This document shows positions 8,063 to 58,898 of a stretch of DNA of 64,000 nt, one piece after another (position 1 is the stretch's first letter; each line of letters opens with the position of its first letter). The DNA lies in NCBI GenBank assembly GCA_951406725.2, contig OX597824.1, positions 34,410,001 through 34,474,000 on the forward strand, written 5' to 3'. The translations under genes were made by a program, and so were the position numbers. Under the pieces are notes generated by a model. The model had not been told where the DNA came from. It did not search any database and saw nothing but the letters and a program-made list of their open reading frames with translations. Source of the DNA: Octopus vulgaris. Its lineage: Eukaryota.

Positions 8063-10594
8063 GATGTTCCGCAAAGACCGCATTAATCGCCATGGAGGGG
8101 GTGTGATGATTTATGTTCGATCAAATCTATCGGCAATTCCCTGTGATGATTTGAACCAATCTCAGCAGGAAGTATTTTTCTGCAATATACACATGACCAT
8201 GTCAACACTTCTGCTCGGAGTCGTTTACCGTCCCCCAATTATCGTCAAGACGCACAGCTTTTTGATATTCTCAGAACTGCTGCCATGAAAACAGCCGCGT
8301 ATGTGTATATTGCAGGCGACTTCAATTTCCCTGAGATTGACTGGGAGGCCTTCCGTTGGCCGCAAAGTGCAGACGATTTCCTTGAACTGGTGCTGAATTC
8401 AAATTGGTCCCAAGTTGTTACCTCCCCAAACTGGCTCGAATTTTATGCCTCTGGAGATGTGGACACTATACTCCAGAACATTCTGAGTTCAATATGAGCG
8501 GCATGTGCAGCATCAGTACCACGCAAGCACAAAACCCCCCCCAATAGTGCAATTTAGGAGACAGCATGCAGTCCAACTTGCCAGGAAAGAACACCGTAAT
8601 GCTGAACAGGAATACAAATTGCACAAATCAGAGAGCAACAGGAAAAAGCGCAATAGGTCAGCCAACCACCTCAAGCAGGGGACAGAAAAGGCAGTGCTTG
8701 AATTTGAACAACGCATTGCTGCTAACCCTGACAGCAAAGTGTTCTGGAAGTATGTGCACTCAAAGCAGAGACCCCACTCTCCAGTTGGTCCCCTTCGCAA
8801 TCCCCACACAGGACAGATTACTGGCAATCCTGAAGAATGTGCAGAAATCATTGCTGGATGCTATGCCGGCATCTTTACTGTCGAAGGCCAAAATGTTCCA
8901 TCTTCATCACCACTGACATCAGACTCTATATCTACTATGCAATTTACACCAGCATTGCTACAACGCCACCTTAAGAATAAACACAACTATGCCTCTCCTG
9001 GTCTCGATGGTGTTACATACCTACTTCTCAAACGCGGTGGGTACTTTCTTCTAAGCCAACTTTCTCTATTCTTCCAATTCTGTCTTGACAATGGTGTTAC
9101 TCCAGAACAGTGGAAGACTGCCAGTGTTATCCCTCTGTTCAAAAAAGGCGACCGCACATCGCCTGTCAACTATCACCCCATTAGTCTTACTAGCTGCATC
9201 ACCAAACTGATGGAATCCTGTATCAGAGAAACCCTCTGGAACTTCTGAAAGTCGGATTTATTCCTAACTCCAGCTGCTGTAATCAACTCATCGAGTTTCT
9301 TGAGGACGTTACCCAAATCACTGATCGCGGATCCTGGGTGGATGTTGTTTACCTGGACTTTGCTAAGGCTTTTAACTCTGTGCCACACAAAAGACTTATG
9401 GTGAAGCTTTCTGCGTTGGGCGTAAGAGACAAACTCTATAACTGGTTGAAGTCCTTTATTTTCGGTCGAAAAGAGGTTGTCACAGTTCTAGGACAGCACT
9501 CTTCGCCCTATGAGATGACATCTGGTGTACCTCAGGGATGTGTTCTTGGCCCCCTTTTATTTGTTGCATATGTTAATGACATAGATGCCAACTTAAAGAA
9601 TGCCACAGTGCTGAAATATGGAGATGACATCAAGCTATACCTCAAAATAAAGAGGTCAGATCCTGTACACTATAGATCTCTATTGCAAGCAGACCTGGAC
9701 ACAATGCAGCAGTGGATCATGGACTGGCAACTCAAGCTGGCTGTGGACAAATGTACCACCATGCATTTTGGGAGGAGAAACCCAGCGTTCACCTACTCCC
9801 TCCACAACACTAGTCTCAAAAAGTCTTCATGTGAAAGTGACTTGGGTGTTATCGACAGTGATTTGCGTTGGACAAAACACATCACTAAAATTGTCAAGAA
9901 GGCTGAGGTTGTCTTGGCATCACTCACCAAATCCTATGTGAGCCGCTCTCCGACTATCTATCTGCAGCTTTATACAGCTATGGTAAGACCTCACCTGGAA
10001 TTTGCATCACCGGTCTGGAACCCCTATCTTGCCCAGGATATCAATCGTCTGGAACCCCTATCTTGCCCAGGATATCAATCGTCTGGAAGCCGTTCAGCGA
10101 CGTGCAACTAAAAGAATACCCTCCATCAGGCATTTGCCATATCCTGAACGCCTTACTTCCCTGAGCATGGACACATTGAAACTCTGACGTCTGGCAGCTG
10201 ACTTGGCAGACACCCATAAAATTATCAACCATCGTACAAACAATAATTCTGAGCACCTTTTCAAACTCCACCCATCTAACACCCGTGGACATATTTACAA
10301 AGTCAGAAAACAGCATAGCTCCCATGACTTCAGGAAACATTTTTTCATGCTGAGAGTTGCTGAAGCATGGAACAAACTGCCGGCATCGGTTGTTTGTTGT
10401 CGGAGCACTGCATCCTTCAAAACTTCCATGCTTTCTGAGATTCGCCAACACTACACCTGATTTTCTCCCCTCCATACACATACAAGCATGTATCTGACTC
10501 ATGCATTGTTCGCTTTCCAGACATTTGTACATTACTGCATATACTCTGACAAGTTGTGGTGCACCTGAGCACTGTATACAATAATTTCATTATT
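8063..10594 (+). mobile_element. CR1/L2-like LINE, 5'-truncated and pseudogenised (APE endonuclease and RT remnants), inserted into a family B SINE
   Basis: Motifs RKDR..HGGGV, VVYRPP, AGDFNFP.IDW, SPGLDG, YLDFAKAFNSVPH, SGVPQGCVLGPLLF, Y(G)DD, RPHLEFASPVWNP, RKHFF..RV..AWN.LP; stops, frameshifts and deletions; SINE halves at about 7955-8062 and 10596-10620. Confidence 0.92.
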
Positions 10595-14216: not shown

Positions 14217-14628
14217 CTTTATCTTTTATCTTTTACTTGTTTCAGTCATTTGACTGCGGCCATGCTGGAGCACCGCCTTTAGTCGAGCAAATCGACCCCG
14301 GGACTTATTCTTTGTAAGCCCAGTACTTATTCTATCGGTCTCTTTTGCCGAACCGCTAAGTGACGGGGACGTAAACACACCAGCATCGGTTGTCAAGCAA
14401 TGCTAGGGGGACAAACACACAAACACACACACATACACACACACATATATATATATACATATATACGACAGGCTTCTTTCAGTTTCCGTCTACCAAATCC
14501 ACTCACAAGGCATTGGTCGGCCCGGGGCTATAGCAGAAGACACTTGCCCAAGATGCCACACAGTGGGACTGAACCCGGAGCCATGTGGTTGGTTAGCAAG
14601 CTACTTACCACACAGCCACTCCTGCGCC
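14217..14628 (-). mobile_element. Full-length tRNA-derived SINE family A (CORE-like)
   Basis: Minus strand begins GGCGCAGGAGTGGCTGTGTGGT (A box), GGTTCAGTCCC (B box), CTTGGGCAAGT core-like motif, tail AAACAAGTAAAAGATAAAAG. Confidence 0.9.
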
Positions 14629-18149: not shown

Positions 18150-21100
18150 CTATGAGGATTGCTACTAGTCACTAGATCAACCTTTGACCTCTCATTCTCC
18201 ACCAGCTTCGGTATGCTCGAGAGAAGCTACCTCACTCCACCAAGGGTTCCTAGCAGAATTAGTCCTGCCAACCCCACCACTCCTACAACTTTTGACCTTC
18301 CCCCCACACCACCTGACATCCGTTCTAGTCCACCATTGCAACCAATACTGCTTGCCCTGCCTCCTCTCTTAATTCACTTCCTCGACTGAGTTCTTATGCT
18401 GGCCCTCTACTGTCGGCCAATGCTAGCTCACCACCTGACTGTGCTCTCTGTGCTTGCGCTAGCCAATACCTATAAACAATTGTCATCTATGCCACCAAAA
18501 TTACCACAGAAGTTATGTCTGCATCACCAAGGCTCAAGCCGAAAGGCTTCCATACAGGACCTGCAGTCAGTGCCACTTCAACTCCAATGCTCTCCGTGGA
18601 GATGCCCCACACTGCAGCAACCAGTTCGCTACTGAGAACTTTGCTGCAATCTTCCAGGGTTTATCCAAATCGAAGCTCATTAATCAGATCCTTAATGAAG
18701 CCCAGAATAGCTTTGCTCATGCGCTCTTCAGCTTGTTGAAAAACGTATGTTTATTCAACAGTACGTCCGACTGACAGAAACTGTTTCTGTTCCCTTTCAT
18801 CTCTCTCCACATGCACGATCTGAAATCAGGCTGCCTTACATCCTCTCTCAAGCAACAATTCCAGTTATTTGAGTCTGCCCCGACCACTTCTCACCTCAAT
18901 TTAACATCAAGCACGGTTCCTACCAACAGGCAACATCAGTGTGCAGTCAATGCCAAATTCAGCAAATTTCACATAAAAGGGGCTATCCGTCTCCTCTCTT
19001 CTCTATCCTCCCTCTGTGTAACTCTGAGTCTCTTAAATGTCTGAAAGAGCAGCACCCAACAGCATCCCCAGATAATCAGCTAAACTGGCCTGATCCCCCA
19101 GAATACTTGAGACTGGTCTTCACTTCTGATAACATTAGAAAGGCGATTTCATCCTATTCTGCTGGTTCAGGTGCAGGAATTGACAGCCTTCAGCTTCAAC
19201 ACCTCAAGGATATTTCCTTATTGGCCGGTGATGCTGGACTCGAGCTCTTGGACAATTTGACTCAGTTTGTGATCCAGTTCTTTTCAGTGAACATTCTCCC
19301 CTATATCCGCCCACTGTTCTTCAGTGCAAAATTATTCAGGATCACTAAACCATATGGATACCTGCACCTCATTTTAGTTGACTGCACCCTTCACTGTCTC
19401 ACCGCAAAGGTGTGTTTACAATCTGTCTCTAACCTATTGGAGGAGGAATTTTCCTCCACCCAGCTAGGAGTGGGCACCAAATTTGGATGTGAGGCTGCTG
19501 CCCATGCTACCAGAGCCTATGCCAACTTGCCCTCCTTGTCTCTCAAGGTCATTCTCAAACTTAACCTCAACTATGCATTCAACTCTGTCAGCCATGATGC
19601 TGTCTTCAGCTCAGCAAGAGAAAGGTTCCCACAACTCTACCGCTCTGCATGGCAGGCTTATCAAGAGCCCTCCTACCTCTCTTTTGGTGACCAAATCATC
19701 ACCTCTGCCTTAGGAGTCTGACAGGGTGACCCACTTGGGGCTACTCTGTTTGCACTGGGCATTGATGACATCACTAAGATGGGGGTCAAGCTAGACCGGT
19801 ATCTCAATGACGCTTGTTTGGTAGGACCTCCAGACAGGGTTCTCGCCATTGCAGACATGATGGTTGGGGAGCTTGGTCATCAGGGTCTCCAAGTAAACAG
19901 CTTCAAATGCGAGCTCTGGATCTTCAGCCACCTAGCTTCTCAACATCAACAAACAATAGACCTATTTGCAGCATCCTTCCCTTCCATTGTAGTCCTTCCC
20001 TCATCGGCTTGGTGCTCCTTTGGAGCCCCAATTACTGACCTTGCCTTTGAGTCCATCTTCCAGTCAAAGGTGGCTGCCCTTGAGCAGTTGCTGAAGAATA
20101 TTGAAGCAATCGAACCCCATCAAGGTTTCTTCATACTTAGAAATTACCTTTCGATCTCTAAGCTTCTATATTTGCTCAGAGTCAGTTCCTCTCACCGATT
20201 CCTATATTGTCTCTGACTCTTTGACAATCAAATCTTCAAGAGACTCCAATGCCTGGTCAATGTCAGACTCTCTCCAACATCAGACGATCAGTCTGCATTG
20301 TCCAAGCAAGTTGCGGGTCTTGGTCTTTGTAATTGTTTGTCCCTCTCTCTTCCCTGCTTCCTTTCCTCCATTCACGCCTGCTCCACCCTGGTGAGCAACA
20401 TCCTCTCCTCTCCAACATGGACCAGTTCCAACAGGGAGTTGGATGAAGCTCTCCAACACTGGAGTGAATTGGGCTTGTCTGCTCCTGAGAAGGTGGAGGG
20501 CTGTCTGAGTCAGAGAGCTTGGGACAACATAATTCCGAAGGCCACTTTCAACTCCTTCTTCATCCAGTCGGACCAGTTTTCAAGGTGCCGCTTACTGTCT
20601 GCTAGTGCCAAATACTCAGGTGACTGGATTGATGCCATCCTTGTTGCTAATGTTGGTGGCCTACCCAGCTTGAACGAACTTCGTGTCTCCATTGCCCTCA
20701 GAGTGGGAGCTGACATATGCATGGGTTTGAGCTGTTGTTGTGGCAGGCTCCTCGACTCCACGAGCCTCCAGGGTTTTTCTTGCCACCTGAATGCTGGTCA
20801 CATCATGTGTAATACAGAGTTAAACCTTATGCTCAAGAGGAGCTTGGCCCAGGCAAACATCCCCTCCATCTTGGAACCATCTGGGTTGTCCAGATGTGGT
20901 GGGAAAAGACCTAACAGCTTCACCATGTGCCCCTAGTCAAGAGGCAGATGCCTTGTCTGGGACATCACAGTTAGCGACTCCTTTGCTTCTTCTCACATCC
21001 TGGATGCTGCAGCCAAGGCGAGATTCACAGCTTCAGTGACCAAGCGGAACAAAATTCTAAAGTACTGCAATCTGTCGGCCAACTACATTTTCCATCCTGT

Positions 21101-27149: not shown

Positions 27150-27206
<57 letters not shown>

Positions 27207-27236
27207 GCGAGAATGAAGCAACAAGAATGGATAGGT

Positions 27237-27327
27237 TTTTAGTACAATCGTTTCATACAAGGACAGGTTTTATTAAAAGTTGCAAAAATTACAGCATATA
27301 AACGTGTCCCGTACTCATCAGCTAAAA
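27237..27327 (-). ncRNA. Type I hammerhead ribozyme motif (mirror copy)
   Basis: Reverse complement of 28299-28389. Confidence 0.78.
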
Positions 27328-28298
27328 TACATGTGAGTTCTCTAGACATCCTAGTGGTTGAGGCTATACTCATGAAGTAATGTAGATAATTAAGTAACAT
27401 AAACAGATTTCAAAAGTTCATTAAAGTTCTTTAAAGATGATGTACAGTCTTATCACAGAATTTTTAAAAAGTCTTAATAGCATCACAGAGAAGGTGACCT
27501 AATTCATAGTGCACATATGAATTTCCAGAGATATGATGAGGGATTACATACTCACAGAAGACAAATTTATCCATTGTTAATTACAACGAGGTGGGTTTCA
27601 ATTCCTGCTTATTAGCATTACAGAGAGGGTTAATTAATCCTTTGTATAGATGCACAATTTCCAATGGTGTAGGTGTAAATTTCAAGGAATTTCATATTCA
27701 CAGGCGATAAATTTATCAATGGTTGAACACAATGAGGTAGGTATCAATTCTTGCTATATGATTAGGTATTTGCCACATTAATCACATTACTGCTATTTAC
27801 AAGAGGTTATAGCTACAGCCTCTTGTAAATAGCAGTAATGTGATTAATGTGGCAAATACCTAATCATATAGCAAGAATTGATACCTACCTCATTGTGTTC
27901 AACCATTGATAAATTTATCGCCTGTGAATATGAAATTCCTTGGAAATTTACACCTACACCATTGGAAATTGTGCATCTATACAAAGGATTAATTAACCCT
28001 CTCTGTAATGCTAATAAGCAGGAATTGAAACCCACCTCGTTGTCATTAACAATGGATAAATTTGTCTTCTGTGAGTATGTAATCCCTCATCATATCTCTG
28101 GAAATTCATATGTGCACTATGAATTAGGTCACCTTCTCTGTGATGCTATTAAGACTTTTTTAAAATTCTGTGATAAGACTGTACATCATCTTTAAAGAAC
28201 TTTAATAAACTTTTGAAATCTGTTTATGTTACTTAATTATCTACATTACTTCATGAGTATAGCCTCAACCACTAGGATGTCTAGAGAACTCACATGTA

Positions 28299-28389
28299 TT
28301 TTAGCTGATGAGTACGGGACACGTTTATATGCTGTAATTTTTGCAACTTTTAATAAAACCTGTCCTTGTATGAAACGATTGTACTAAAA
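28299..28389 (+). ncRNA. Type I hammerhead ribozyme motif
   Basis: Stem I TTTTAG/CTAAAA; CTGATGA core; stem II GTACGGGACA/TGTCCTTGTAT; GAAA; minimal stem III C-GATT-G; GUA cleavage triplet at 28381-28383. Confidence 0.8.
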
Positions 28390-28810
28390 ACCTATCCATT
28401 CTTGTTGCTTCATTCTCGCTTATAATCACCCCACATTACTGTATTGTTAAATCAGTATAGTTTTTTTTGGTGCATCTAAGTTAGGTACCATATTCAAGTA
28501 AATTCATTTAAATTAACTTGAATCTTTATTGCTTTTTGTATATATATATATATATATATTTAAATAATGAGGGAGATAAATTAATATTAATTTTAATATC
28601 AATTTAAAACCAGTAGTCCAGCATACAAAAAATCTGAGAAGTCAGAGAAAATTCTAATATATATATATATAACTTTCATTTCTTATTTCACAATGTATAT
28701 ATATGGTTGTATATATATATATATAGACACACACACACATATATACATATATATATATGTATATATTTATATCTTGTGTATATATATACATATATATATA
28801 TATATATGTA

Positions 28811-29814: not shown

Positions 29815-32800
29815 CCATGAAGAAAAGTGGCTGCTGAATGCCGAATTTTCCAAGAAACTTGGACATTAGATTACTTCTTCATTGGATACAACGTGAACTG
29901 ATTTGTTTCATATGTTTAGAAAGTATTGCTGTGAATAAGGTAGCAGATATTAGGCGACACAAGATGTGCCATTATAAAGATTTTAGGACATTTACTGAAC
30001 AAGCAAGGAAAGATGAAGTTGAGTGGTTGAAGTTTAGGTTTGGAAAACAAATGTCATTTTTTTAAAAACAGAAATTGTCAGCTATGAAGTCTCAAAGCAT
30101 ATTGCTGAAAAGATGAAACCTTTTACAGATGGCGATCTTTTTAAAGACTGCTTATTGGCAGTGTTGGATATTGTTTGTACAGAAAAAAGTTTTTATTTGA
30201 AATTATCAGCCTGTCTCCAAGGATGATCACATGGAGGGTTGAAAAAATGTCAGCAGATGTTAAAAATCAATTAATCAACACCTGCAGTGAATTCCAATAT
30301 TTTCAATTGCAGTCAATGAGAGTACAGACTTAAGTGACACTGCACAACTTGCTGTCTTTGTGTGAGGAGTGACTTCAACTTTTCAGATCTTTGAAGAACT
30401 TATTCAGTTAATTCCTCTGAAGGAAACTGTAACCAGAGCAGACATCTTTGAAGCTTTGTTGAAAATGATATCAGAAATGAAGTTTGATTTTTGGCATCAC
30501 AACTGATGGTAGTCAAGCTATGGTAGGACAGAAAAAAAGGCTTTGTTGTACTACTGCAAGAACATATAGAAAGCTTTGGAATCACACATAAACTTGTTAA
30601 AATTCTGTTATATCGCACGTTCGGATGACCACTACTCAACTCTTTGACATCTAGACTTCTCCCTCTATATCTACATATTGGGCTAGCCTACTTCATCATC
30701 TGGGGGCGCCGACACAACACCTCCCCCTTTTGAGTTTTTTAAACCCGAATTTATCAATTTTATTTCCTTGGTGAGAAACTGGCATATCTTTTCCTCTTAG
30801 CATTAATTTCCATCATTTCTGTAGGTTTTCTCTTCCTGTTCGACCTACACATCAGTTCTGCTTTTGCTTGTGGTTCTGGGACCTTGAACAAATCATACCA
30901 TAAATCCATTGGTTCTTCTCGCCTCTCTTGGTTTTTGGTATATCTTTTTTTTTAATTGGTTTAAATGCCTTCTGTGTTCATATTTTGGTCCTTTTACCAT
31001 GTACATCACATTACTCAGATGTCCAGTTACACTTCCTTGTCCCCAGTCCTGTTTCCCGTTACTATATATTTTAAAATACACTTTGTCACCTGTGTTAAAA
31101 AATTTTCGTTTTTCTTCCTGAATTTTCTATTTTCTGTTTCCTGCTCGGTAACTATTTGTCAAAAATAGAATGAATTTTTCTGGAAAACATCAAATCTGCA
31201 GGTGACCTACCTGACTCTGCATTTGGATTCGGTGTTATTCTATACACCTGCAAAAACTTTGTCGTATTTGCATCTTCAAGGATTTCCCGTCTGGTCTTCC
31301 TTAAGGCTCTCTTGAATGTGTCAACAAATCTTTCCGCTAACCCATTTGACCTTGGATGGTATGGTGGAGTTAACACATGCTTCATCTGAACCGACTTACA
31401 GAATCTTTTGAACTTCTTTGCCATGAATTGTGTACCATTATCTGACACGATCATATCTGGCACTCCATAATGAGCAAACAGTTCTTCCAAGAAGTCAATA
31501 GTCACACTTGTGGTTGGCCTTGAACATTTTCACACTTCAGGCCATTTGGAATAGCCATCCACCACAATGATATAATGAGAGCCATTTATTGGTCCTGCAA
31601 AATCCACATGTAGTCTAGACCATGCTGAATCCGTTTTTGGCCATGGTTGAATCTGCACTGGGGGCGCCTTTGCTGCCATAGTGCATCCCCTACACTGTTT
31701 TACCAGTCTCTCAATTTGCTTGTCCATATTCGCCCAATAAATGTAACTTCTCATAAGGCTCTTCATCCGGACAATTCCCAGATGTCCTACATGAAAGTCT
31801 TTTAATACTGTTTTGCAGTGCTTCAGGTATCATCACTCTTTGTGCATATAGTTATACCTCATCACATACTGCCTATCTTACTGCATGTTGCCGTATTTAT
31901 TATCGATACGTCTGAGATGGTATCTAAATGCATTTTGGTCTGAAACCCATTTATTTCTACCAACACAAATTTTCAGTTTTGTCTGGTATAATTTACTTTT
32001 GTTGAGTAGACTTTCTTCTGTTTTACCATTTTCTTTGACCGGCATTTTGTCTGTATATGTCCAATTTTACCACACTTAAAACAGGTTTTATCTTTAAAGG
32101 AGCAATCTTTCTTCAAATGTCGATCACTGCAACCATAGCACCGTTTTGAATTAAAATTTTTCCTTCTTTCTGTACTTTCTTTACACATTTGTACATTATT
32201 ATTCTTGTCTTCTATCTTTCTTGTATCATCTCGAAGGTTATTACAACTTCAAGGTAAAATTCAGCTCATAAATGAAATGTATAACCATATTGTTGCCTTT
32301 GAAGAAAAAGCGACAGTTGTGGGAATATCAACCGTAAAATAAAAATTATGTGCATTTTGTATCATTTCAAAGAATGAAACCATAGGATTCAGAGCTATTT
32401 GTGAATACAATCCAGGATTTGAGAAATGAATTTGCATCACATTTTGCTGACTTTCATCTGCATGCAAATCAGTTTAAATTGTTTGTTGCACCATTTGATG
32501 TGGAGGTGGAGACAGTACCAGAATGTTTCCAAATGGAATTGATTGATATGCAGTGTGACGACTTACTGAGATCTAAATTTCATTCTAAAGATGTTTCATT
32601 GATTGACTTCTATGCAAAATATATTTTTCCAAGTGGGAAGTATACCAACTTAGTGAATCATGCAAAAAGGATGGCATCTTTGTTTGGAAGCACCTATCAG
32701 CATGAGCAATTATTTTCCAAATTGAAGCAAACTAAGAACAATTTCAGAACAAGATTAACTGATAATCATCTTGATAATATCTTGATCTTGGCATCAACAA

Positions 32801-33118
32801 GTTTGAAGCCTAATATTGAGAAGCTTTCAAAGAATAGAAAACATCAAGTTTCCCATTAATTTTTTTGGCTGCTACGTATTTTTACAATTTTTTTTAAACA
32901 AATGATTTCAAAAATGTCTTAAATTGAATAAATGATGTTTTTCCATTATTACATTCATCTGTGGGTAATACAAATTATTTTTAAATATAGTCAGCACTCG
33001 TGATTAAATTTTAGCTTGTGTAATTTTCCATAATTATTCTTTTAAGGCCTTCATCTGGCCCACTATCATCATTGATACTCAATCCAGCCCATGTTGGCAA
33101 AGAAGTTGCCAATCCCTG
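29815..33118 (+). mobile_element. hAT (Charlie/SPIN, GTF2IRD2-like) transposon remnant split by a Gypsy insertion
   Basis: N-terminal ICFICLESIAVNK..IRRH, KPFTDG, ESTDLSDTAQLAVF, TTDG at 29815-30605; C-terminal MASLFGSTY..EQLFS.LK..K...RTRLTD.HL...HQVSH* at 32401-32859; 3' TIR-like gttgccaatccctg ending at 33118. Confidence 0.85.
30606..32240 (-). mobile_element. Gypsy/Ty3 LTR retrotransposon remnant (gag zinc knuckle, integrase, PPT, 114-bp 3' LTR)
   Basis: CFKCGKIGHIQTKC knuckle; WSRLHVDFAGP, IVSDNGTQF, PYHPRSNGLAERFV integrase motifs; polypurine tract at 30720-30731; LTR TGTT..AACA at 30606-30719. Confidence 0.9.
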
Positions 33119-33541: not shown

Positions 33542-33591
33542 AACACCTCTGATGAGAACCAAATAAGGTTTGAAAATCGATTAAGGTTGTT
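33542..33591 (+). ncRNA. Minimal type I hammerhead ribozyme motif in a roughly 250-bp element flanked by (TA)n (about 33408-33656)
   Basis: AACACCT-CTGATGA-GAACC aaataa GGTTT-GAAA-A TCGA T-TA-AGGTTGTT; palindromic loop III; UUA triplet. Confidence 0.75.
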
Positions 33592-35151: not shown

Positions 35152-36489
35152 CCTATTTCTTTACTACCCCCAAGGCGCTAAACACAGAGAGGACAAACAA
35201 GGACAGACAAACGGATTAAGTCGATTACATCGACTCCTGTGCGTAACTGGTACTTATTTAATCGACTCCGAAAGGATGAAAGGCAAAGTCGACCTCGGCG
35301 GAATTTGAACTCAGAATGTAGCGTCAGACGAAATACCTATTTCTTTACTACCCACAAGGGGCTAAACACAGAGAGGACAAACAAGGACAGACAAACGGAT
35401 TAAGTCGATTACATCGACTCCAGTGCGTAACTGGTACTTATTTAATCGACCCCGAAAGGATGAACAGCAAAGTCGACCGTTGCGGAATTTGAACTCAGAA
35501 CGTAATGGCAGACGAAATACCTATTTCTTTACTACCCACAAGGGGCTAAACACAGAGAGGACAAACAAGGACAGAGAAACGGATTAAGTCGATTATATCG
35601 ACCCCAGTGCGTAACTGGTACTTATTTAATCGACCCCGAAAGGATGAAAGGCAAAGTCGACCTTGGTAGAATTTGAACTCAGAACGTAGAGGCAGACGAA
35701 ATACCTATTTCTTTACTACCTACAAGGGGCTAAACACAGAGAGGACAAACAAGGACAGACAAACGGATTAAGTCGATTACATCGACTCCAGTGCGTAACT
35801 GGTACTTATTTAATCGACTCCGAAAGGATGAAAGGCAAAGTCGACCTTGGCGGAATTTGAACTCAGAACGTAGCGTCAGACGAAATACCTATTTCTTTAC
35901 TACCTACAAGGGGCTAAACACAGAGGGGACAAACAAGGACAGACAAACGGATTAAGTCGATTACATCGACTCCAGTGCGTAACTGGTACTTATTTAATTG
36001 ACTCCGAAAGGATGAACAGCAAAGTCGACCGTTGCGGAATTTGAACTCAGAACGTAGCATCAGACGAAATACCTATTTCTTTACTACCCACAAGGGGCTA
36101 AACATAGAGAGGACAAACAAGGACAGACAAACGGATTAAGTCGATTACATCGACCCCAGTGCGTAACTGGTACTTATTTAATCGACCCCGAAAGGATGAA
36201 AGGCAAAGTCGACCTCGGTAGAATTTGAACTCAGAACGTAATGGCAGACGAAATACCTATTTCTTTACTACCTACAAGGGGCTAAACACAGAGAGGACAA
36301 ACAAGGACAGAGAAACGGATTAAGTCGATTACATCGACCCCAGTGCTTAACTGGTACTTAATTTTTTGACCCCGAAAGGATGAACAGCAAAGTCGACCTC
36401 GGCGGAATTTGAACTCAGAACGTAACGGCAGACAAAATACGGCTATGCATTTCGCCCGGCGTGCTAATGTTTCTGCCAGCTTGCCGCCT
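35152..36489 (-). repeat. Tandem array of seven 184-bp family B SINE units with a single tRNA head
   Basis: Unit starts at 35152, 35336, 35520, 35704, 35888, 36072, 36256; head (GGCGGCAAGCTGGCAGAAAC on the minus strand) only at 36440-36489. Confidence 0.95.
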
Positions 36490-38736: not shown

Positions 38737-39130
38737 ATATATATATTATTTAGAGATAGTAGTTCCCTTACTCACCATATAAAAAAATTTCAATTTAATA
38801 CTTACTACTCATTTCTCAACTAAACGTGTTTCTTAAGGTTCCTTAAGCATGCAGTGTTTTACAGGAACCTTTCTTAAAATGTAACCCCAATCATCAGGCC
38901 TGATGATTTTAAGAAGGGTTCCTGTAAAACACTGCATGCTTAAGGAACCGTAAAATGAACCTTAAGAAACACGTGTAGCTGAGAAATGAGTAGTAAGTAT
39001 TAAATTAAATTAAAATTCTTTTATATGGTGAGTAAGGGGACTACTATCTCTAAATAACATATATATTTCCTCATTGAGAATAATTTGAACCCCTGTGATG
39101 CCGGAATTTTTATTCCCTAATAAATAAAAT
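38737..39130. mobile_element. Palindromic hammerhead-bearing element (arms about 38737-39066) plus 3' extension, in (TA)n
   Basis: Axis atcatcagg|cctgatgat at 38898/38899; arms are reverse complements with different small deletions. Confidence 0.8.
38896..38982 (+). ncRNA. Type I hammerhead ribozyme motif (degenerate mirror on the minus strand at about 38816-38900)
   Basis: CTGATGA at 38900-38906; long stem II closing with AACCTTAA; GAAA-C-ACGT-G-TA; stem I truncated by the palindrome axis. Confidence 0.65.
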
Positions 39131-41239: not shown

Positions 41240-42440
41240 CTACATCAAATTCAGAAATAGCCAGCTGGCAAAATGAAACCGGACACGGGCAAAGACAGGA
41301 AGACAGTCATCTGCTTTGTTGATTTTGCTGCTGCATTTGACTCCGTCGATTGTGACACCCTCTGGTAGATCATGCAGGCAGATGGTATCCCACCTAAACT
41401 TCTCAATCTTACCAAAGCTTATTAACTGCTCAACAAGATCCCGCATACACATGTACAGTGAAGTGTCGGAACCCTTCAAAATATAGTCTGGCGTTCGGCA
41501 AGGATATGTTCTTTTGCCAACTCTTTTCAATTACGCCATCGACTGGATCACCACAAATGCATTAAGGGAGTTCCCCAGTGTCACTGTTGGTCACAACTTT
41601 TCCATCAAGGATCTAGATTACACAGATGACATTGCGATACTTGGCGAAACATTTGCTGATGTCCAGTTTATTATCATTGAGCTCCGGCATGTTGCATCGC
41701 AGATTGGTATGAAAGTCAATGCCTCGAAGACCAAAACCCTCACAGCTGGCTTCGCCCTACCAGACAAAACACCCATTGTCCTCAATGGTGATATTCTTGA
41801 AGAGGTTGAGAGTTTCAAATACCTCGGTGCCATCATTACAGCTACAGGTCAAGGTGAGGCTGACATTAAAACACGAATCGACCTCGCTCGCCAAGCCTTC
41901 AACCGATTCAATGCATGACTCTGGTCAAGATCTGAGATCCGACGCACCACCAAAGTACGGATCTACCAAGCGCTAGTGTGAATGATTCTCCTTTACGACA
42001 GTGAGTCATGGCCAATGAGGGTGGAAGATATTAAGCAACTAGAATCCTTCAATCACCTGTCTACGCCGCATCCTTCATGTCGAATGGCATCATTTTGTCT
42101 CCAACAATTTGGTGCGACACCAGTGCAAAATCACTTCCCTCCGACAAGTCATCCTAACAAGACGTCTGCGTTGGCTGGGTCATGCCCTCCGTCGTCAACC
42201 AGAATTCATCTACGAAGCAATTGCCCCGGTTCCCCTTCAGGGTTGGCGAAAGCGATGTGGTGGACAATGAAAAACCTGGCTGATCTGGAACCCAACCTAG
42301 GCCCCCATACCTACGGCATTTGCCACTGGAATAAGGAGTGGTTGGAGATCGTTAGCCTCAAATCGCCAGGTCTGGTCGGCGTTTGTGAGATGCAGTATTG
42401 AGGATGAATGAAGCCAGCTAAACCCACCCCGGGTGAATGC
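41240..42440 (+). mobile_element. RTE-clade LINE fragment (second family), RT pseudogene
   Basis: FVDFAAAFDSVD, GVRQG.VL.PTLFNYAIDWI, DLDYTDDI, EEVESFKYLG, LYDSESWP, RRLRWLGH. Confidence 0.88.
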
Positions 42441-44851: not shown

Positions 44852-45787
44852 TTAAGAATTATCTGACCATCGTCTGTAAATTGAATGCTGAAAGAAAATA
44901 TTCACCAAAAACATTTGAGTTACTCTTCCAATTAATATATTATCAGGCAACCAATTTTTTATCCATTCTTGCTGAGCAATTAAGCCATTTCCGATAAAAA
45001 GATAAAATTGTCTAATCATAAGTTGCGTAACAACAAAAACTGTGCCCAATTTACAAACAAGAGTTGGTTGTAAACCTGAGCAACTTAAAATGGACAGACT
45101 ACTTTCTTCTAATAAATCATCATCTTCGTTGTCTTCGTTTTCAAAAAACATTGAAACAGTTTTCTGATAATTGAAGCAATTGACAGAAAAGAGCCGTAGG
45201 AAAATAGTGCCAAGAAAAATAGGACTTAAAAATCTGCCAATCAAATTTAGAAAGTTGGATAGTTTCTCAGAGTTTAGTTGCCAAACACTGCTCACAAATT
45301 CTATCAAAGTGTGTTTAGAATCAAAACAGGATAAAATAGGTAATTCTATATTTTCATTTAAGTTGTTCTCTGTTTTCATGAGTAAAAGTATAAGCATGGT
45401 CAACATGAAACTAAAAGCAGTTTCCCACATCTGTCCAGTTCCTAATGACCACATGAGAACATGGTTGAAGACTGTTAGAAACAATATCACATAAAGAAGC
45501 CAGGTGTTGCTGTTAAAAGTTATTAACACAATATAACAGGATAAACCATAGTTTAGAATAGAAAATATAGCAAATATAATTTGATATATGTACAGGTTAT
45601 CCTCATCATCCTCTTCAGCCAAATCATTTATGTAATTGGAAAGTTTTGTTGCTAGGAGAAGAATAAAGAGAACTTCTTGGAATAACATGATAGGTTCAAA
45701 TAACTGCAGCACAAAGCCATAGACATATACCACTGAATAAGGGATGAGTTTCACAGGGAGAGCCCACAGCAGAATAAATAATCCAAC
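44852..45787 (-). CDS. Exon 2 (311 codons plus stop) of a multi-pass membrane protein, SERINC/ICE2-like
   Basis: 936-nt open frame in AT-rich DNA; acceptor ttttcttatttag|GTT in frame with exon 1; several hydrophobic segments; IMLFQEVLFILL...EED..YQII...LNYGLS resembles the SERINC segment FILIQL.LL.DF...EE..WY..L...LNY.LS (family assignment is inference). Confidence 0.85.
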   Translation of the reverse strand, partial: VGLFILLWALPVKLIPYSVVYVYGFVLQLFEPIMLFQEVLFILLLATKLSNYINDLAEEDDEDNLYIYQIIFAIFSILNYGLSCYIVLITFNSNTWLLYVILFLTVFNHVLMWSLGTGQMWETAFSFMLTMLILLLMKTENNLNENIELPILSCFDSKHTLIEFVSSVWQLNSEKLSNFLNLIGRFLSPIFLGTIFLRLFSVNCFNYQKTVSMFFENEDNEDDDLLEESSLSILSCSGLQPTLVCKLGTVFVVTQLMIRQFYLFIGNGLIAQQEWIKNWLPDNILIGRVTQMFLVNIFFQHSIYRRWSDNS

Positions 45788-53204: not shown

Positions 53205-53612
53205 TAAGAGTGGCTGTGTGGTAAGTAGCTTGCTTACGAACCACATGGTTCCGCGTTCAGTCCCACTGCGTGGCACCTTGGGCAAGTGTCTTCTGCTATA
53301 GCCTCGGGCCGACCAAAGCTTTGTGAATGGATTTAGTAGACGGAAACTGAAAGAAGCCCGTCGTATATATGTGTATATATATGTGTATGTTTGTGTGTTG
53401 TGTTTGCCCCCTTCACCCAACATCGCTTGACAACCGATGCTGGTGTGTTTACACCCCCGTAACTTAGCGGTTCGGCAAAAGAGACTGATAGAATAAGTAC
53501 TAGGCTTACAAAGAATAAGTCCTGGGGTCGATTTGCTCGACTAAAGGCGGTGCTCCAGCATGGCTGCAGTCAAATGACTGAAACAAGTAAATGAAAATGA
53601 AAAAATGAAAAT
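53205..53612 (+). mobile_element. SINE family A
   Basis: gagtggctgtgtggtaag...gtggcaccttgggcaagtg...gaaacaagtaaa. Further partial copies at about 33119-33390, 38210-38490, 39145-39300, 46172-46425, 47670-47835, 63207-63337. Confidence 0.9.
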
Positions 53613-53699
53613 ATGTATAACATTGTATATAATATATAAAATATAAAAATACCAGTAATTATTAAAATATATAACGTAGAGCATAGAAAGTAGAATAGT

Positions 53700-53823
53700 A
53701 TCTTACAGCTGTTTCAGCCAAGAGGGCATAGTACCCCAGTTTACTTCCATCCCTTCAGTGAATTGAAGTATTTGGTAGATAAGATTAAGGTACTTGGGTG
53801 TGCCTCTGGGCTTCGTCAGAGAG
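53700..53823 (-). ncRNA. Type I hammerhead ribozyme motif with long stem-loop II
   Basis: Minus strand: TCT-CTGACGA-AGCCCAGAGG...CCTCTTGGCT-GAAA-C-AGCT-G-TA-AGA; palindromic loop III; stem I only 3 bp. Confidence 0.68.
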
Positions 53824-54232
53824 TTTAGAAAGTTCATAAGGTTAAGTTATAAATATACATACACACATACACACTTTTACAAATACATACATATACATAA
53901 ATACATATCTATACATGTATATGTATAAACATACAAAGGAGTTAATTATTATTATTATTAGGTGTATTATATTATTCTTATTAGATAAAGTATAAACAGA
54001 GGAAAGAAAAATTATCAAAAGAGAAATAATAGTGGAATTTAAACAATCGATATATATTAAGATTATTATTATTGAGGTTATGTAGGAATGAAAAGGTATA
54101 TAAATGAGGAATGCACACACACACACGTACAAACATGCCCATAGGTACATACATATTTCAAGTGTTGAGAAGGGAGGATTACTGTAGTAGTTCGTATTTT
54201 TCTTTTTATTTAATTATAATAATTATTCACAA

Positions 54233-54307
<75 letters not shown>

Positions 54308-54847: not shown

Positions 54848-55520
54848 TTGATAAAGTCGACCATGGTATGACATGTAACAAGCTGCGTAATCTCGGTATA
54901 GTTGGAAAACTTGGAGAATGGCTACATGATTTTCTAAAAGATAGAAGTCAGATAGTGGCGGGCAATGGGGCAACCTCCAAAGAAACGTAAATATTGAGTG
55001 GTATTCCACAGGGCACTGTCTCGGGGCCACTGCAATTCACAGTGGCTCTCTCAAACATGGCCTCAGTTGCTCAGATAGCCATCCATGTCAGCTATACAGA
55101 TGATACAAAAGTTTTTCAGAGGAAACAGAATTCTGCTCAAGAGTTGAACGCAATGTACAGGCAAGTTGAGGAAAATATCATGCAGCTTAATGCTGGAAAA
55201 TTCCAACCCCTGCGCTACCAGCACACGAAGTTCAATGAGAAGCAGACAAGATAAATTGCCCCAGGAAGGATTGAAATCCTCGAATCAAAATCAATGCGCG
55301 AGCTGGGCATTGACATGAGTAATGATTTATCTTTCCAGGTGCATATTACAAAGTTGGCCGGATGGATCCTTAGAACATTCAGAACGAGAGAACAGGATAT
55401 CATAATTGCCCTCTGTAGGACATTTGTCCACAGCTGTTAAGATTACTGCTCCCAACTATCGCCATCACAGTGTAAAATTAACGACGGAACTCGAACCTAC
55501 ACAAAGAAGATCGTGTTATG
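54848..55520 (+). mobile_element. Degraded LINE RT fragment
   Basis: SGIPQGTVSGPLQF, SYTDDTKV, MQLNAGKFQ, GWILRTF. Confidence 0.8.
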
Positions 55521-57461: not shown

Positions 57462-58898
57462 GGCGAAAGTAAAGAATACGAGGGACGTTCGATAAGTAAT
57501 GCCTCTGACCCACTTGTAGTTGTTTGATCTAGCTGAAATTTTGCATGTGCAATCAATTATATCTCTATAGAGTAAGTGGCAAATTACAGCACTGAATTAA
57601 TTGTGGTTTCTGATTTACAGGTGTTTGAACCGAGTCAAGTGTGAAATGGAGCCTGTTGAGTGTCGAGCAGTGATCCGGTTTTTGTATTTGAAAGGACGCA
57701 CACCACGGGAGACTTTTGATGAAATGAAAGTAACTTATGGTGATGATGCCCCATCATATGACCTTGTAAAACGCTGGTATCGTGAATTCAAACATGGTCA
57801 GAACTCTGTGGAAACAGCTCCCAGATCTGGTCGCCTCCTTCTGCCATTGATGAGGCATCTGTCCATCAAGTTGAGGCTGCCATTTTGGAAGATCGACGCA
57901 TAACTATTCGCCAAATAGCCCTTGAGGTCAAGATTAGTACCGGGTCTTTGGAAACTATCATTCATGACCATTTGCATATGCAAAAGGTATCTGCCAGATG
58001 GATTCCCAGGTTGCTCACGCCTTTCCAGAAGCAAGAACGCGTCGAGTGCTCGAGGGTGAATTTGGAGATGTGCCAAGAAGATGAGTCAAAATTTTTTAAA
58101 AGACTGATTACACAGGATGAAACCTGGGTCCATCACGATGATCCAGAGACCAAAGCCCAGTCAATGCAGTGGAAGCACCGTGACTCACCCCCTCCAAAGA
58201 AGGCAAGGGTGCAGCCCTCCGCTGGCAAGGTCATGCTCAGTCTTCTGGGACCAGGACGGAGTAGTGATGACAGATTTCCTGGCAAAGGGTACCACAATTG
58301 CAGGAGCCTATTATGCTTCACTTTTGAGGAAATTAAGAGAAGTTATCAAAATCAAGAGGCAGGGCAAGATCAGCAAAGGTATCCTCCTCCTGCAGGACAA
58401 CGCTCCGGTCCACAACTTGCTTGTCGCCAGATCAGAAGCACAGGCGTATGGGTATGAACTCCTCCCCATCCCCCCTACTTTCCTGACCTTGCACCCTCTG
58501 ATTTTCACCTCTTCCCAATCATGAAGTTGTTTTTGAAAGGAAAGCATTTCCCAGATGATGCAGCCTTGATTTCTGAAGTCACGTTGAGGTTGGAGGACCA
58601 AGCTGGGTTCTTCTACAAAAACGGTCTCCAGAGCTGCATCAAACGATGGGAGAAATGCGTAACTCTAAGTGGTTCCTATGTAGAAAAAGACTAATAACTG
58701 TGCCAAGTTTCGTTGCTCTACTACTATGGGAAGTGGGTCAGGGGCATTACTTATTGAACGCCCCTCGTATGTACACTCAGTGTTTCGGGCTAGGGTTAGT
58801 GTTAGGATTAGGAATTAGGGCTAGGGTTTAGGGTTTGGATTAGGGTTAGAGTTTTGTTACGCCGAAAACTGGTGGTGTACGTATTCTTTACCTCCGCC
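57462..58898. mobile_element. MITE family 3 (about 146 bp, almost entirely TIRs plus a TTAGGG tract) carrying a nested mariner
   Basis: Perfect 8-bp TSD ACTTACTG (57454-57461 and 58899-58906); TIR GGCG[A/G]A[A/G]GTAAAGAATA[T/C]GTACAC; degenerate (TTAGGG)n at about 58787-58850. Confidence 0.88.
57479..58767 (+). mobile_element. Full-length mariner (DD34D) with frameshifted transposase (57646-58694)
   Basis: 1289 bp, TA TSD, TIR CGAGGG[A/G]CGTTC[G/A]ATAAGTAATGCC; WIPRLL, DETW, QDNAP.H, PDLAPSDF motifs spread over several frames. Confidence 0.95.

Follow-up and report, generated by a model that had tools for sequence, protein, structure and literature searches.

A type I hammerhead motif with an intact core, here called H4, is carried at 53819–53704 on the minus strand of the analysed Octopus vulgaris DNA (64,000 nt; referred to as the window) by one copy of a multi-copy Octopus repeat. 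The repeat copy is likely what remains of a Penelope-like element (PLE) that targets (TA)n, namely its 5′-truncated 3′ end (pseudo-LTR), or the same end of a non-autonomous derivative, an assignment given a probability of roughly 0.7. H4 was read from the sequence and matched with a structure descriptor. On the minus strand the order from 5′ to 3′ is helix I, CUGACGA, helix II, GAAA, helix III, GUA and helix I, so that all parts of the core (CUGANGA, GAAA and NUH) are present in type I order. Helix II is closed by an A-U pair in place of the usual G-C. The preliminary description of this DNA, made from the letters alone, had reported a minus-strand CUGACGA core with an AGCU loop III and a stem-loop II of about 95 nt; this reading was borne out, with a measured helix II domain of 97 nt. 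The parts of the element and its surroundings are as follows, in the direction of the motif.

54237..54307, no strand: (TA)35 tract at the 5′ end, putatively one half of the target site (sequence)
53971..54236, minus strand: upstream (5′) non-coding part of the repeat, cut off at (TA)n; repeated in 3 of 3 DNA-type runs
53837..53970, no strand: internal low-complexity/microsatellite spacer, missing in at least one other copy
53820..53822, minus strand: 5′ strand of helix I, 3 bp only (descriptor)
53813..53819, minus strand: first core box, CUGACGA (sequence and descriptor)
53716..53812, minus strand: 97-nt helix II domain, which should form a rod-like hairpin of 33 pairs (fold prediction)
53704..53715, minus strand: GAAA box (53712–53715, sequence), 2-bp helix III with AGCU loop, and GUA triplet; predicted cut after 53704
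53701..53703, minus strand: 3′ strand of helix I (descriptor)
53652..53700, minus strand: 3′ tail, common to other family copies; the true end may be deeper in the TA-rich tract
53601..53651, no strand: decayed TA-rich tract at the 3′ end, putatively the other half of the target site (register with another repeat copy)
53208..53597, plus strand: neighbouring dispersed repeat outside the element, 91–93% to 14226–14621, which we take to be SINE-like

The 97-nt helix II of H4 folded with a minimum free energy of −30.0 kcal/mol (z −2.66), and equally low values were obtained in 12 of 1000 shuffles. The fold signal is confined to this helix, because the whole 201-nt region around H4 folded no better than shuffles (z −1.15). 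In the monomer fold, helix I had a pair probability of 0.02 and helix III of 0.0; the 8-nt helix III segment is completely self-pairing (−11.1 kcal/mol) and helix III formed as an 8-bp dimer duplex only. Published PLE hammerhead motifs likewise have a helix I of 2–5 bp.

Five hammerhead motifs belonging to four families were located in the window, with the loop III sequences GAUU (two copies), UCGA, ACGU and AGCU and with NUA triplets throughout. The strict descriptor was set to a helix II domain of ≤150 nt with ≥4 base pairs at its base, a 4-nt loop III and a helix I of ≥3 pairs, and the relaxed descriptor additionally permitted a bulge of 0–2 nt before helix II. Controls were dinucleotide shuffles in 500-nt blocks (n = 300). 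The strict descriptor matched the window 4 times and none of the 300 shuffles; the relaxed one matched the window 5 times, compared with a single match in 4 of 300 shuffles (0.013 per shuffle), the 4-nt length of loop III having been chosen in both descriptors once the matches were known. The earlier claim of four sequence-unrelated hammerheads with the loops GAUU, UCGA, ACGU and AGCU and a common NUA triplet within 64 kb therefore held, since all were found again by descriptor, and their frequency lay well above the shuffled background. Comparison against the whole window gave no similarity among the four families beyond microsatellites. In all four, the helix III segment pairs with itself over 8 of 8 nt (−5.8 to −11.1 kcal/mol; in H1 via G-U pairs), and the helix III pair probability inside one molecule was 0.00–0.01. 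The other three families comprise the following features.

27202..28424, no strand: H1 fold-back with two hammerheads, one per end, each with loop GAUU and a 60-nt helix II domain; 98.9% self-complementary
28305 plus strand and 27321 minus strand: H1 hammerheads, the two arms of one fold-back (descriptor)
33549..33583, plus strand: H2 hammerhead with loop UCGA, a long helix I and a helix II of no more than 16 nt (descriptor)
38760..39070, no strand: H3, a fold-back of greater age (79%) with the core at its centre (self-comparison)
38900–38977, plus strand: H3 hammerhead with loop ACGU and a 59-nt helix II domain that folds weakly; needs the 2-nt bulge before helix II

Two of the four families, H1 and H3, are thus fold-backs, and together the four elements make up about 3.7% of the window. 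The centre of the H3 fold-back falls on its CUGAUGA box, so the core occurs on both strands; helix III is altered in the mirror copy. The helix II domain measures 59–97 nt in three of the four families, and neither the 60-nt arm of H1 nor the 59-nt arm of H3 folded better than shuffles (44 of 500 and 87 of 500 as low, respectively). As a side observation, the 1223-nt near-perfect palindrome of H1 (27202–28424) contains an internal repeat with a spacing of about 146 nt, and it is either a young fold-back insertion or an assembly fold-back.

The H4 repeat is multi-copy. Four of 24 listed sequencing runs were compared with 53600–54236, and matching contigs numbered 647, 801 and 711 in three of three DNA-type runs from two organisms; summed contig depth was not taken as copy number. 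Identity was widely spread, with ≥99% in 72–85 contigs and <90% in 217–261 contigs of these runs. Contig cover fell on 53652–53836 and 53971–54236, with some of it, near 54111–54155, being microsatellite, and repeats, including 53600–53651, were skipped in the alignment. Positions 53652 and 53836 were considered as element ends and rejected, as both coincide with skipped repeats. In one contig, 53821 and 54068 are separated by 24 other letters, a joint that ties the upstream part to the hammerhead. Shared family sequence extends at least 52 nt beyond the predicted cut site. A further run, guessed to be RNA, yielded 3 contigs, none over the hammerhead, and gives no evidence on expression either way.

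Variants in the family copies bear on the long arm. Within 53652–53836, 14 variants were listed among 40 of 94 rows, 11 of them at 9 positions of helix II and the other 3 in the tail; none of these 14 falls in the core or helix I, which is not significant (about 0.18 by hand estimate). When each allele was folded singly, 6 of the 11 listed helix II alleles stabilised the arm by more than 0.5 kcal/mol, 2 were near neutral and 3 destabilised it, by +0.96 to +4.46 kcal/mol each. Same-class substitutions would be expected to give 2.1 stabilising alleles (P 0.003), and with one allele per position 5 of 9 stabilised (P 0.007–0.017), both values applying to the variants listed. This is a one-sided test and not two-sided covariation, on alleles that are not independent and a variant list that was filtered. 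At 53763, the letter that closes a tip pair left open in H4 accounts for 97–99% of summed depth. Taken together with the mostly stabilising alleles, this marks the long arm as a family trait that has decayed in the H4 copy, and selection has likely preserved the long helix II as a structure in the H4 family. Separately, contigs were seen to diverge from H4 at 53719 (base of helix II), 53738 (mid-arm) and 53826 (immediately 5′ of helix I), a pattern suggestive of subfamilies that differ in arm and upstream sequence.

TA-rich DNA flanks the element on both sides, and H4 may have been inserted into a TA tract of which the two flanks would be the halves. In repeat family D17, position 53601 is aligned with 6085, where an (AT)n begins; the decayed tract thereby lines up with the (TA)n behind another copy of the neighbouring SINE-like repeat. 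The preliminary description had placed the motif in an insert adjoining (TA)n, which stands insofar as both sides are TA-rich; however, the long perfect (TA)n at 54237–54307 lies 533 nt from the cut site on the 5′ side, and on the 3′ side there is only TATATA, 32 nt from the cut site and within the decayed tract. Across the five motifs, the distances from the cut site to the next TA run of ≥3 units are 38, 156, 73, 82 and 32 nt, so that in four of five the cut site precedes such a run by 32–82 nt. The cut site of H2 lies 73 nt before (TA)20, and the left end of H1 adjoins (TA)27. The 3′ closeness of the four elements to TA runs gave a combined P of 0.024–0.047 with thresholds of our own choosing, a modest value. 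The earlier proposal of a (TA)n-associated retroelement population is partly supported, by the multi-copy family and the PLE-end anatomy; the TA link within the window is weak.

H4 and its companions share with published PLE ends the ribozyme type, a short 3′ tail running into TA-rich DNA and, at H1 and H3, the fold-back pairs; H4 itself is solo in the window. In the description by Cervera and de la Pena (2014, PMC4209133), hammerheads of metazoan PLE pseudo-LTRs are of type I and combine a palindromic helix III with a short helix I, which is the layout of H4; most of those reported there sit in solo truncated ends, others in opposite-strand pairs 100–700 bp apart. Further points of resemblance to the genomes treated there are the large number of unrelated families within one genome and the presence of both solo ends and pairs on opposite strands (PMC4209133). 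The dimer-type layout is known for metazoan PLE hammerheads (PMC4209133, PMC6765202); variants with palindromic helix III include those of D. willistoni, Aedes, Marsupenaeus and Saccoglossus, and the D. willistoni motif has the AGCU loop and the A at the cut site in common with H4 (PMC4209133). The list in that work includes no cephalopod. Compared with its motifs, H4 has the A-U closing pair of helix II instead of G-C and no linked PLE ORF, and its helix II of 97 nt, like those of two sister families (60 and 59 nt), exceeds the ≤~23 nt seen by eye in 56 rows of Fig. S3 (PMC4209133).

For PLEs in general, 5′ truncation, inverted truncated copies, a tail of 30–40 bp and (TA)n targets have been described (Craig et al. 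2021, PMC8557442). The same source places a hammerhead about 100 nt from the end of Hydra-1_Obim, a (TA)n-targeting element of the Hydra clade in O. bimaculoides. Elements of this clade are like H4 in their (TA)n target and in a hammerhead near the 3′ end, and Hydra-1_Obim comes from the same host genus; its sequence differs from that of H4, and helix II domains of the clade measure ≤~24 nt by eye, against 97 nt in H4 (PMC8557442). Helix III strands identical to H4 letter by letter are found in Hydra-1_aMil, Penelope-1_NV and Penelope-1_SK, and the longest helix II listed in the supplement is about 48–52 nt by eye, in spike-moss PLE-X elements (PMC8557442). PLEs constitute 6.83% of the O. vulgaris genome in 190 families according to PMC13282606.

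The link to PLEs rests on this anatomy, because no RT or GIY-YIG remnant was found by H1 or H4 and no curated PLE sequence was matched. The two adjacent frames tested against Pfam, one each at H1 and H4, gave no RT or GIY-YIG remnant; the H4 frame (123 aa, within 53971..54236) had no Pfam match, and no coding remnant was found upstream of H4. The 107-aa frame of H1 was rejected as a PLE remnant (no Pfam match, no homolog, no atlas match ≥0.8). Absence of a PLE ORF would be expected if H4 is a 5′-truncated copy, in which such an ORF is lost. Seven short motifs, 4 of them from H4, gave 0 matches in the curated PLE sequences of the Craig 2021 supplement, in which line breaks could mask matches.

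An unlikely but closely related alternative is that H4 is the monomer of a non-LTR retrozyme, i.e. a short non-coding unit transcribed from tandem arrays elsewhere, cut by its hammerheads, circularised and re-inserted by a PLE enzyme. H4 agrees with such retrozymes (PMC7229834; Li et al. 2026 preprint) in being non-coding, with a type I hammerhead and dispersed monomers likely moved by PLE enzymes; monomers are reported as common in some families, with lengths of 51–972 bp (bioRxiv 10.64898/2026.07.22.740005), and the long rod-like arm would suit a circular RNA. However, the H4 unit shows neither tandem repeats nor head-to-tail copies within the window, and it lacks a canonical 6-bp helix I with loop-loop contact to helix II. 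Among the 6 joints listed for the repeat, no same-strand end-to-start back-joint was present, and one contig had an opposite-strand joint. The fold-back pairs also fit PLE insertion products better. The two readings overlap, as the preprint 10.64898/2026.07.22.740005 derives retrozymes from PLE pseudo-LTRs. It is improbable that the repeat is instead a MITE-like or other DNA-based fold-back element which carries the hammerhead as an inherited passenger without a role in its spread. In favour of such an element, H1 and H3 form long inverted repeats next to TA runs, TA is the target of Tc1-mariner-type elements, and the window contains pieces of mariner-type transposase. H4, by contrast, is without a terminal inverted repeat, and four unrelated sequences have kept a full core, a self-pairing helix III, the NUA triplet and the same orientation to the near end, none of which is needed for spread at the DNA level.

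Domestication of the motif by the host, for example as a ribozyme in an intron or UTR, has very little probability: the core has stayed intact despite the divergence of H4 from its family, but H4 carries private changes at near-fixed family positions, including the one at 53763 that breaks the tip pair, and its very weak helix I looks like decay rather than conservation. Least probable of all is a chance match of a short descriptor in AT-rich DNA. In its favour are the length of loop III, fixed post hoc, and the behaviour of a looser pattern without pairing rules, whose single match in 241 million metagenome records lay inside a bacterial coding gene and was dismissed as chance; scans of viral genomes and of prokaryote genomes with the pattern returned 0 matches each. 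Against it stand the excess of strict matches over all shuffles, the low folding energy of helix II and the multi-copy family.

If H4 is the end of a PLE, as we prefer, the following course may be proposed. In RNA of the parent element, two hammerheads would pair via the helix III segment, which is self-complementary, and cleave behind GUA, and this cleavage in the dimer would process a tandem or read-through precursor RNA. The reverse transcriptase and GIY-YIG nuclease of the parent would then copy RNA from the 3′ tail into a nicked (TA)n tract; as copying would start from a tail that lies beyond the cut site, the template would be uncut or longer than one unit. Early stops of copying would leave solo ends such as H4, and fold-back copying would give inverted pairs such as H1 and H3. 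Helix II of hammerheads tolerates inserts, as known from aptazyme work, and the long helix II might be a cis signal housed in this tolerant arm, a function that is a guess. The H4 copy itself, judged by its private changes and weak helix I, is probably inert. According to PMC8557442, it is not yet clear what hammerheads do in PLEs.

Existing models did not report the motifs. Rfam gave 0 hammerhead matches at gathering score over the whole window, and at E up to 10 the four matches in 53600–53900 included no hammerhead family; the Rfam microRNA matches among those listed for the window were set aside as microsatellite artefacts. The published min-HHR descriptor has a loop 2 of 3–10 nt, stems of 3–7 bp and no loop III (PMC4209133), and would miss all four families because of the loop 2 limit and the missing loop III. 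The expectation that motif scans with short loop II limits overlook such ribozymes was accordingly supported. Hammerhead counts in PLEs can thus be too low, as descriptors cap loop 2 and a natural family with 97 nt exists. For giant squid, 235 Hammerhead_1 loci have been reported (PMC6962438).

Hammerheads in PLE ends, palindromic helix III, the AGCU loop, the diversity of families and (TA)n targeting are already published, and H4 shows no new kind of element and no new chemistry. The new part is the long helix II, 59–97 nt in three of four families, which is missed by Rfam and min-HHR. Literature searches returned no report of octopus hammerheads with long helix II; Lunse et al. 2017 and Arkhipova et al. 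2017 may describe long-armed variants, and the relaxed descriptors of these two works reportedly permit longer loops, of unstated size. Tentatively, Octopus may hold a large uncounted class of PLE-end hammerheads in which helix II of several families is a selected rod of 60–100 nt serving as a cis signal for the retrotransposon enzyme, with, as part of the same tentative picture, some 100,000 copies if 4 elements per 64 kb are typical. If so, ribozymes would come to light in PLE families so far scored as being without, once scans permit a longer helix II. The H4 family lends itself to a simple test of whether cleavage can do without the arm while transposition needs it, and the ends of the repeat could be used as a marker for classifying unannotated octopus repeats.

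Further observations were made along the way. Naiad_Ovul and Naiad_Obim are like H4 in their (TA)n target, host and inverted structures, but their published 3′ ends are by eye unlike H1–H4 and without a type I hammerhead (PMC8557442). By eye, these ends, termed 'HHR_half_core' by the authors (PMC8557442), have the appearance of a permuted hammerhead in the order cleavage strand, GAAA, CUGAUGA, an order termed SGC in PMC10085705. Helices I and II would each have 6 bp and helix III 4 bp, and the 5′ strand of helix II would be located upstream of the cleavage position. The permuted motif is not clear by eye in the published Naiad_Esco and is absent from the window; if it is real, some Naiads carry a ribozyme after all.

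Elsewhere in the window, a 184-nt unit that is related to a dispersed SINE-like repeat and contains no hammerhead motif occurs seven times head to tail at 35152–36440 (93% matches), and a degenerate (GGGTTA)n interstitial telomere-like repeat lies at 58787–58853. Decayed LINE-like, integrase, hAT and mariner-type coding fragments (8150–10586, 18873–20936, 31152–31529, 32386–32859, 41487–42401, 54900–55500 and 57601–58524) form an ordinary repeat background. An uninterrupted frame of 311 aa at 44855–45787 on the minus strand is 100% identical along its length to a protein recorded for Octopus vulgaris, in agreement with the host; the protein is uncharacterised and hydrophobic, has no Pfam match and is conserved in Argonauta (69%).
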